Shown: piece by piece, positions 44,901-47,900 of the stretch | Layout of the letters: each line of letters starts with the position of its first letter | Numbering within the stretch: the stretch's first letter is position 1 | NCBI GenBank assembly: GCA_965637545.1 | Contig: OZ281495.1 | Span: 25,296,001 to 25,360,000 of the forward strand | Source of the DNA: Phallusia mammillata | Lineage: Eukaryota | Length of the DNA: 64,000 nucleotides | Direction: 5' to 3' | Program-made: the position numbers and the translations under genes | The notes under the pieces: model-generated | What the model was told of the DNA's origin: nothing | Seen by the model: the letters and a program-made list of their open reading frames with translations, nothing else | Databases searched by the model: none

Positions 44901-47900
44901 AAGATCCACTAAGGATATTCTGATTTCCAACTACCATACCTATCTACAAACATATACAACTAATTTTTGCCAAATTAGAGAAAATGGTACTAAGACAAAA
45001 GGTCAAGAGCCACACCATATTCAGACATACTGGATTTACTGGTTAATATTAAGGTGGATTAATTTGTTGTTTCGTCATACGTATATTAACAACTTATTTC
45101 AGCCTCAACATTCCATTCCTGATGTTTTCATCTGGATGTTGAGCGGACAGAAACGAGTAGCTTATGCTCGAATACCGAGTCGACAGATTCTTCACTCTGT
45201 ATGCCAGGAAGAATCTGGACAACACTGTGGAAAAATTCAGACTATCTTCCTCCGGGTAAACAGTTTTCGAAGTAAAAAGTAGTAAACAATCCAACATCCT
45301 TATCGCATCTAAAGCACTGTAGTGAATACATGATGTCAATTGTACAACTATAACCATGGACTATTCCCCTGTCTCAAAGTCAATCAACAACTTGAATATG
45401 TTTCTACTCTTGGGCAACATAAGTATCTTATTCAAATAGAATTATACGAGTACGCCTATAAGTAAGGCATGAAAACGGTTACCCCAGTACACGTTTCTGA
45501 CACGAATATTTGCACTAGTCGGTTACTCATGTGTCTATGGGTAACCGTTTTGTTTTCGAAACGTAGAATTTTCGGCAGGTAGATATTGTTGTTTTTGATT
45601 GATTCTCAAGAGTATTTGTACAAATTTAGTGAGCTTATTCCGAGTTTGCCTTATTTTGGGAAGTAAAAAAGAACCGGAGATTGATAATAGGAAATTTCAT
45701 TCGTATACAACTCAATTTGAAATGGGTTTCTGGTTGGTTTCGGTGATTTGAGCCTGAATAACAGACCATGCAGAAAATGTACTCTCCGCCAATTTATAAA
45801 TGTGACACAAACATATCTTTTCACTTTTTTTTATTAATCAATAAGTAGCTTATATGGTTTACTGCAGTTACCTGGAAAGAAGAGTCTTGGACCGCGAGGT
45901 TGGAGCATCCAAGCGAAACTGGATGTTTACTTCTGGTTCGGACTGACCAAGAACAAACGCGACTTTCTGAAAGGACTTCCAACCGGTTACGAGATCGTCA
46001 GGGCAACAACCGCAATAACTTCGCCTCCTACATTTCTGAAATATGCCGGTGAGATGTTTGTTACAGTTTTGTGATAGAAATGCTTGTATTTAAAGGTGCT
46101 GTGGTTATTGCTGTAATATTTTCATGCGTAAAACTTTGTATTACTGTTTTGAAATACTATAATGTGCCGTGACAGCTTTCCATGTGTGAAACAAAATTCG
46201 GTTTTATTAAGATTCCAACTCTCATCACGAGATAGGCCTGCAGTAAATGATAACTATTTGTTACAACACCGTCTATCATGTTCCGGTTAAAAAAATGCGC
46301 TTGTTTGTACTTTTAGCTTGCAAAACAGACTGTGAACAAAAAACATTTTGCAATCTCAAATGCTTAAATGACACTGATTTATTGCTCTAAGAAGTATGAA
46401 CCATAGTGTACAATAAAGCCAACCTTTTATGAGGGAGCTTGCCTTAACAAACCTGTTTTGTTCTTGATCTTATAGTTGACTGACATATATGTAGAAGGTT
46501 GCCTATATCCAAAAATCCACTTTGTCGTGCCTTATTAGGCCGACAAGACGATTGTAGTTAGTGCTCACTACCGCAGCAATTTGCTTGCACTGTTTTCAAA
46601 CTTCATCATTCTATACTGCCACAGACGCTACATTGTTCACTTGAGCGCAAAATTGCTCTAAGCCAGGTTAAAACTGGTTCTTAGCTGATAATTCCTGGTA
46701 AACTCTTTCTGCGAAATAACACGGAACTAGAAATTAACCCGTCCTTAACCGACAGATCGAAATCAGTTTGAACTGCGTGCTCACATGTATCAAGCCAGAG
46801 GTTTGCTAGCTGCCGACGACACTGGTCTCTCTGACCCTTTTGCAAAGATCATTTTCTCCACTCACACTGACAACACGCAGGTGGGTTTTTAAAATCATTT
46901 TATAACCTTGACCTATTTGTCGCGCCGAAAAGGTTTAAATTTCTAAGCATAGTTTATCTTTTCTGTGTTGTTACCAACATCAAATACACCGTGCGCTGGT
47001 CGACTTGTTAAGCCAGTGCTTGTCACGCAAACTAGAAGATAATTAAATTGTACTTGCATATTATTATACTTTAAATTACGTGTCTTACATTGCTTAAATG
47101 GTTAAAGAAACATTGCAGATTTCCTAATGGTAAAATGAAAAAAAATAACATCGTCACGTTATATAGATAAACTGAGAGTGTTTGAAGCGAACAGTATCGG
47201 ACCCTTTAACAGGCAGCATAGTCATCGACAGTAACCGTTCATGTAATTAAATAACTAAGAATGGAAAATATTTTCCTAGTAACAAAATATTCTTTTATTC
47301 TCCTTGTATTGATGTTTTTTCTTGTGGTTTTACTGAACTGAAGATGCTAGTTGGCGAAATATATATATTCCACAAATATTCGAATAATTTCGTTACTAGG
47401 AAAATATTTTCCATTCTTAGTTAAATCGATAAGGTTATTTTCAAGTCCTAAGACTGTTAACGAAATTGTGTTTGTCTGTAATATGTCCCTTTTTCGAGAA
47501 ATTATGACGGTTTGATGCATTTATCATAGCTTTACAAGTGTTTGTATGAACACATTTGTGAAGAATTTCTTAAATGCCTTATTTTAGGTAATGGAGGAAA
47601 CGCTTAATCCGACTTGGGATCAAACGCTCATTATTCCCAATGTCACCTTGTTCGGTAGAGCTGAGGAACTTCGAGACGACCCACCACTTATCATTATTGA
47701 AATCTTTGACAAAGACGTTGTGGTAAGGACTGGCAATAATTAATGGTTTCCGCTGTTTAATAAAATCGAAACAAGCTTTTCAGTAACGTACAAAGTAAGT
47801 GTTCTACATCAGACAAATATTGAAAATATGTTCCTAATCGACCACGGTGTTTCCAACAAATTCCAAACCATTTTACAAGGGAAAAACAAGCCAAAAGAAT

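Follow-up and report, generated by a model that had tools for sequence, protein, structure and literature searches.

A decayed spliced leader–hammerhead fusion in an otoferlin intron of Phallusia mammillata, probably a retrocopy of trans-spliced Penelope-like RNA

At 45.4 kb of a 64,000-nt stretch of the Phallusia mammillata genome (contig OZ281495.1, positions 25,296,001 to 25,360,000; the window), the minus strand carries a tunicate spliced leader (SL) and, directly after it, what looks like a decayed hammerhead ribozyme (HHR). The locus raises the question of how a leader came to be joined to a ribozyme, and whether such joining has happened more than once. The original prediction, made from the letters alone, regarded the site as the second SL-hammerhead fusion of the window, independent of the one at 62.7 kb and older than it, and proposed that fusion is recurrent. 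It did not name the hammerhead family as a Penelope pLTR, nor the junction as a splice acceptor. We find, with a probability of about 0.8, that the site is a decayed retrocopy of the SL-trans-spliced 5' end of the RNA of a Penelope-like element (PLE), consisting of the leader, a minimal hammerhead and a short tail (Table 1).

Table 1. Features of the window that bear on the 45.4-kb site
Feature	Position	Strand	Basis
Exact 16-nt tunicate SL	45427..45442	-	Read from sequence
Decayed minimal type-I HHR of Penelope-like pLTR	45391..45426	-	SL-anchored score
Likely decayed pLTR tail / 5' UTR	45342..45390	-	Tail-only test and alignment to L079/L264
Otoferlin intron, GT..AG, 612 nt, hosting the insert antisense	45256..45867	+	Contig joint
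FerB-coding exons flanking the intron	45103-45255 and 45868-46048	+	Pfam FerB
Intact, unfused hammerhead of family B; acceptor TTCAG/AAA of its own where the SL joins in fused copies	27615..27658	+	Covariance model, 49.3 bits
Unfused family-B hammerhead, GAGA-stem subfamily	35112..35154	+	Covariance model, 35.9 bits
Unfused family-B hammerhead (47335-47366) with inverted tail arms, typical PLE layout	47252..47423	+	
Better preserved SL-GAA-HHR-tail fusion	62621..62724	-	nhmmer E=6e-7; 88% identity to L229; 25.7 bits anchored

The letters read as had been stated, i.e., an SL followed by a hammerhead with two core mismatches and a decayed stem II. The 16-mer is identical to the Ciona SL as printed in PMC7986045. 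After it come the linker ATA (45426-45424), the core CTTATGT (45423-45417), a T (45416), GCCC (45415-45412), AAGA, GTA, GAAA (45404-45401) and CATAT (45400-45396). Compared with CTGATGA, the core has G5 and A9 altered and thus departs from an active one. G12-A13-A14-A15.1 is present as the GAAA, and the bulged T is kept as well. An A replaces C11.1, by which the G10.1-C11.1 pair is broken, the 3' strand of stem I is eroded, stem II is broken and stem III eroded, and the MFE fold differs from the HHR fold. The catalytic roles of G5, A9 and the G10.1-C11.1 pair are well established. Given the changes at all three and the eroded 3' strand of stem I, the ribozyme is predicted to be inactive.

Further downstream, a RACTGATTYTG-like motif (45385-45375) is found together with the remnant of a GGAAA/TTTCCA hairpin. 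An apparent extension of the insert to +135 failed a held-out test, in which the family match beyond 45342 (past +85) was unsupported (1508/2000). A search at the locus yielded no significant target-site duplication (TSD) and no inverted piece; one candidate 12-bp TSD with two mismatches was rejected, as it was equally good in 9 of 66 control flanks, and its segment also aligns within the family tail. An SL RNA gene or orphon was likewise rejected, because the site lacks a GT donor and its flanks match the SL gene unit at only 3/30 positions upstream and 11/30 downstream. Three exact SL copies exist in the window, at 45442, 57573 and 62724, all on the minus strand. The one at 57558-57573 continues with GTGATTC and gives no family-B match (-2.5 bits); its flanks are unlike the SL gene unit and have no match among the fetched loci.

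The host gene lies on the plus strand, and its exons are joined across the intron of Table 1, so that the insert is antisense and intronic. The intron was derived from a contig that skips 612 nt, whose source run is only guessed to be RNA. An exon at 40375 (+) matches otoferlin with E=4e-26 vs 1e-8 for dysferlin (PDB match).

Judging from its sequence context, the hammerhead family to which we assign the copy (family B) is the pLTR hammerhead of endonuclease-positive (EN+) PLEs. Under a strict pattern, 522 intact family-B cores are found genome-wide. In six longer stretches, chosen for their paired cores, the motif lies in the terminal repeats of long ORFs: L156 has a pLTR, a 949-aa ORF and a pLTR in tandem plus an inverted piece, and L152 shows the tandem pLTR-ORF-pLTR order around a 910-aa ORF. 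In L156 the core is separated by 191 nt from the open frame that follows it and by 274 nt from the end of the ORF before it. RVT_1 was matched in L156 (E 2e-5) and L152 (8e-5), with a C-terminal GIY-YIG in both (E 0.009 and 0.0015), all below gathering scores; in L155 the only match is RVT_1. As in PLEs generally, the pLTRs are tandem or inverted and carry tails. Intact copies have an invariant core, which holds by construction since they were selected on it, an extra base after A9, and covarying stems I and II. The covariation is independent of that selection: in 32 intact copies, 87.5% of cells are paired with 48 double changes, a level reached by 0/500 shuffles, although the relatedness of the 32 copies inflates this control. 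Judged by eye, L155:1-1320 (-) shows a PLE insertion in the gag-pol-like ORF of an LTR retrotransposon.

Several other features of the window were recorded. Another hammerhead-like family, of the form CTGAAGA ... GAAA and longer in stem II, has two near-identical copies at 13295-13338 and 27513-27556 (-), the latter of which adjoins the family-B copy at 27618 in back-to-back arrangement. Long inverted repeats at 5945-8953, with arms of up to 275 nt and 86% complementarity, surround a CTGATGA...GAAA at 7448 and two A-runs, and probably represent a foldback or PLE-type insertion. A tRNA gene with a probable intron is located at 15255-15345 (+) (Rfam 58.7 bits), and a 158-nt tandem duplication, 93% identical, at 48811-49126, with a third partial copy near 49447-49574. 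Rfam at gathering scores reports no hammerhead in the window, and at E<=10 it reports none even in the intact 27.6-kb copy, so this negative is uninformative.

Is the 45.4-kb copy really a relic of family B? Because the SL fixes where a match has to start, we scored the site from the SL junction with a decay term, in 8 settings. The score is 7-11 bits without a tail block and 11-15 bits with it; in all 8 settings it was reached by 0/2000 dinucleotide shuffles, and at 1-3 of 2000 random post-AG sites of the window, one of them probably a true copy, with a model that was designed after the family and this copy had been seen and a tail block that was noticed while viewing the copy. The tail beyond the stretch described originally, when compared with 98 tails from all subfamilies, gave a score reached by 6/1000 shuffles and 24/1000 random 76-mers of the window, which adds modest separate support. 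On the other hand, an unanchored profile HMM built from 27 copies outside the window gave 2.6 bits, reached by 379 of 5000 shuffles. The covariance model also gave 2.6 bits (E=0.64 in 86 nt), the copy being absent from its 28 window matches at E<=10, and a subfamily nhmmer scan did not list it at E<=10. That is, the covariance-model check named in the original prediction failed, and the proposed comparison with shuffled sequence was passed in its SL-anchored form but not by the unanchored HMM. The covariance model is blind to decayed copies, because it gives even the unambiguous 62.7-kb copy only 8.7 bits (E=5.5).

Two DNA runs contain multi-copy 31-mers of other loci that match the 45.4-kb SL plus 14 nt with three differences, as would be expected of SL-ATA junctions with intact cores, and SL/ATA is a real junction type with the commonest linker (10/26). 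Two patterns were built from or informed by the 45.4-kb copy, one also from the 35.1-kb copy, and their matches are not counted as support. The copy scores 14.6 bits, and among 91 positionally sampled SL sites 26 reach at least 10. Given the anchored and tail results, together with a prior of ~30% among dispersed SL sites, we consider it very probable that the site is a true relic of a family-B hammerhead.

As for the history of the copy, its flanks are unique in the genome and unrelated to those of the 62.7-kb copy, and the linkers differ (ATA vs GAA), which bears out the claim of an independent event. Its greater age is likely: among 184 sampled copies, the nearest one is 68% identical to it, compared with 88% for the 62.7-kb copy. 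Yet the sample may lack its source subfamily, and the two copies are alike in having ~4 core changes. The SL is intact (16/16) while the remainder is 68% identical to the nearest sampled relative, which must be explained by exact-SL ascertainment or by an unsampled subfamily. The proposed likeness to the 35.1-kb copy turned out not to be special, because the best alignments go to other subfamilies (L238 and L079/L264). By itself, this single copy is likely a dead relic of little importance.

We have then considered the SL at the level of the whole genome, where 3860 exact matches exist (control 0). An SL followed by GTA accounts for 3094 of them, and the other 766 are without GTA. The majority of the listed SL+GTA sites belong to a tandem array with a unit of 553 bp; this unit contains a GT donor besides a U-rich tract, and the array likely represents the SL RNA genes. 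L283 (G000:C3:11108000-11110200) is likely such an array, with the 553-bp unit in ~3000 copies genome-wide. The SL+GTA pattern found this array, while two guessed Sm-site patterns missed it, and the Ciona Sm motif AGCTTTGG does not occur in the L283 array.

An exact SL followed within 1-8 nt by an intact core and GAAA is found at 77 sites of the genome, and SL-NNN-CTGANGATGC at no more than 2 mismatches at no fewer than 350 sites (control 0); by reading, the 45.4-kb copy fits the latter with 2 mismatches. The proposal of recurrent fusion is thus strongly supported and was even understated, and the label of a "second" fusion does not suit a class with hundreds of members. We further scored a positional sample of 91 SL sites, i.e., the first 100 listed minus four already fetched intact fusions and the last five: 26 score at least 10 bits, 6 between 0 and 10, and 59 below 0, where the 26 include duplicated loci (six of L009-L014 and two of L019-L020) and the four omitted positives bias in the opposite direction. 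By these scores, roughly 30% of the dispersed SL sites ("pseudogenes") in the genome would trace to the PLE class.

Other associations of the SL were also observed. At L003:1501-3016 and L008:1501-3016 the SL immediately precedes two ORFs, a coiled-coil one and a second one that in L008 matches Exo_endo_phos. Both loci are likely full-length LINEs copied from RNA that had received an SL by trans-splicing, so the LINEs of this genome, too, may be subject to it. Three groups of SL sites have flanks in common on both sides (L004-L006, L168, L172 and L211; L026, L174, L175, L206 and L213; L167, L173 and L196), some of them with partial SL duplications; other repeats seem to carry the SL of these groups within them.

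The position of the junction is informative about how the SL was joined. In unfused copies, a YAG stands 2-9 nt upstream of the core in 75 of 85 cases, behind a tract with ~70% pyrimidines. A close unfused partner was available for 26 of 56 fused copies, and in 19 of these 26 the SL is joined at the AG of the best partner with the same linker. The seven misses comprise four whose best partner is 5'-truncated (its siblings carry AG/ATA), two whose partner has no AG, and one with a mutated partner. Across eight linker types, the junctions are at a YAG behind a pyrimidine tract. In these alignments the SL sits at the pyrimidine tract and AG acceptor of the unfused copies, inside stem I of the hammerhead. 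In most subfamilies this AG forms the outer pairs of stem I; since the SL itself ends in AG and replaces the acceptor AG, the 5' strand of stem I stays unchanged. In one subfamily the unfused copies (L065, L066 and L068) have no AG acceptor, yet SL-fused relatives exist (L058, L242 and L255). A comparison of four runs with L156 gave no SL among the loose contig ends listed, and is uninformative either way.

The fused copies have the anatomy of short retro-insertions. Of the 77 intact fusions, 70 were fetched, and 66 of the 70 have distinct upstream flanks. Exact TSDs of at least 9 bp are present in 15 of 66 fusions, compared with 1-3 in each of five permutations, and start 95-130 nt from the SL start in 12 of the 15; the other 51 lack such a TSD under the same test. 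In 38 of 66 fusions a G, often part of the TSD, directly precedes the SL, and is possibly cap-related. An inverted self-copy lies upstream in 17 of 70 fusions vs 1 control, while an in-register pLTR lies upstream in 0/70, and tblastn of the L156 ORF within 1.5 kb of SL loci gave matches at 0/60. The upstream sequence shared by L009 and L055 was tried as an SL inside a pLTR, and appears instead to be an inverted element piece within the TSD. Among copies with a partner, 0/34 fused ones extend more than 200 nt past the core vs 12/82 unfused ones. Fused and unfused copies both end mainly ~80-110 and 160-190 nt past the core, and these clusters fit internal initiation of reverse transcription at tail sites as described for another PLE in the available text of PMC11167929.

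Based on the above observations, several other explanations of the site can be weighed. It is quite improbable, in our view, that the site derives from a different RNA, tagged with an SL and retrocopied, whose downstream part resembles family B by chance: this would agree with the failure of the unanchored and structure-aware models, with the 59 of 91 sampled sites where something else follows the SL, and with the lack of a TSD to delimit the unit, but it is opposed by the anchored score, by the separate tail signal and by the prior among dispersed SL sites, and a DNA search found no parent locus, which is weak evidence for old copies. A shade less probable again is that the fusions are template-switch chimeras, made when the reverse transcriptase jumped from PLE RNA to SL RNA or to an SL-capped mRNA at the shared AG, with PLE RNA not trans-spliced. 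The SL and the acceptor both end in AG and so offer microhomology, and RNA bearing the junction was not observed in the contigs examined; however, a two-base homology would not select that single spliceosomal YAG behind its pyrimidine tract with so many linker types, and 0/70 intact fusions contain the intron part of the SL RNA as it stands in the gene unit.

We consider it very unlikely that the SL was captured in the pLTR of a single PLE lineage, or of a few, which then spread the fusion as DNA, so that the copies would not be separate splicing events. Although a few fused copies have indeed been duplicated with their flanks (L009-L014 and L047-L050), the upstream flanks of nearly all intact fusions are distinct, neither an in-register pLTR nor an ORF precedes them, and the ORF-bearing elements examined carry the AG acceptor and not the SL. 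Least credible, to the point of being hardly tenable, is that the insert has been retained in otoferlin as an antisense ribozyme that still works or as a regulatory element of the gene. Both X2, possibly the assembly's own sample, and the divergent haplotype X4 contain the insert, and an empty allele was seen in neither. X4 differs by 13 substitutions over 44935-46200, none of them within 45275-45558, so the insert is unchanged there; one haplotype is too little to show constraint, and the altered catalytic positions, the eroded stem I and the failed covariance model all argue against retained function.

The preferred reading, i.e., a decayed retrocopy of trans-spliced PLE RNA, thus combines the observed anatomy, junction position, length and TSDs of the fused copies with a series of steps that we infer, namely that PLE RNA is trans-spliced, primed internally and copied up to the cap, and that the insert then decays neutrally. 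The host spliceosome would trans-splice the SL onto PLE RNA at the acceptor of the pLTR, and the spliced RNA would likely be the mRNA for the ORF. The PLE protein would start reverse transcription within the 5' UTR at its usual tail sites, in the two clusters past the core given above. On trans-spliced RNA the enzyme would reach the capped 5' end after 100-200 nt and leave a short, ORF-less, dead-end insert, while unspliced read-through RNA would give the longer copies. The 45.4-kb copy would have decayed neutrally after its insertion. More generally, we lean towards the view that ascidian PLEs keep a trans-splice acceptor in the hammerhead stem and that SL splicing sorts their RNA into two fates, the spliced form giving protein and dead-end inserts and the unspliced form giving new elements. 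Transcripts of bdelloid PLEs, too, may be trans-spliced.

PLE hammerheads, a splice site at helix I, internal priming and SL-tagged retrocopies are already known separately. Minimal hammerheads in the pLTRs of metazoan PLEs were described by Cervera and De la Pena 2014 (PMC4209133), and the layout of family B matches them; the available text of that paper has no SL or trans-splicing for these hammerheads, whereas hundreds of genomic copies here carry a leader that joins within stem I. According to the same text, Penelope of Drosophila virilis has a cis intron that ends at helix I of the HHR. As in family B, the 5' end of helix I coincides with a spliceosomal 3' splice site, but in the fly splicing in cis alters the HHR, while in family B the site is likely used in trans, the AG of the SL preserves stem I, and the spliced form survives as a fossil in DNA.

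Internal initiation at tail sites was reported in vitro for the lizard element PAc Poseidon (Frangieh et al. 2024, PMC11167929). As there, the inserts here stop at set positions a short way 3' of the HHR, which form two clusters, and the template is uncleaved RNA; in the published part available, initiation of PAc Poseidon is inside the ORF, while the ends of family-B copies fall within the 5' UTR and reach at most about the start of the ORF. Dinoflagellate retrogenes with SL relics (PMC6050394, PMC5585692) and the SL pseudogenes of Ciona (PMC7986045, citing Yeats 2010) resemble our sites in that a genomic SL marks reverse-transcribed trans-spliced RNA. As far as the available texts go, those cases concern host retrogenes or unexplained SL pseudogenes, whereas here ~30% of dispersed SL sites come from one retrotransposon class. 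The combination of PLE hammerhead and SL was not found in the literature searched; Arkhipova 2017 (terminon), Gladyshev and Arkhipova 2007 and Yeats 2010 may touch on the link. A term search for "leader" gave no mention in PMC8557442, PMC6431247 and bioRxiv 10.64898/2026.07.22.740005. For the intron retention of PLEs, the available text of Arkhipova et al. 2013 (PMC3846280) proposes an antisense template without excluding an unspliced sense one.

The fusion class bears on this question of the PLE template, and it also offers a source for the share of dispersed SL "pseudogenes" estimated above. Only sense RNAs receive an SL, and they receive it at their 5' end. In the fusions it has the same sense as the hammerhead and the ORF and stands upstream of an uncleaved hammerhead, and being a 5' sense tag in that position it points to sense, capped and uncleaved templates in the germ line. 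Such templates would agree with the in vitro work, as far as presented in the available part of PMC11167929. If the two-fate reading is true, the SL-hammerhead fossils would serve as in vivo evidence for the copying of sense, capped, uncleaved RNA by PLEs from an internal start, and the sorting of spliced from unspliced RNA would give a reason why PLEs appear to retain introns.
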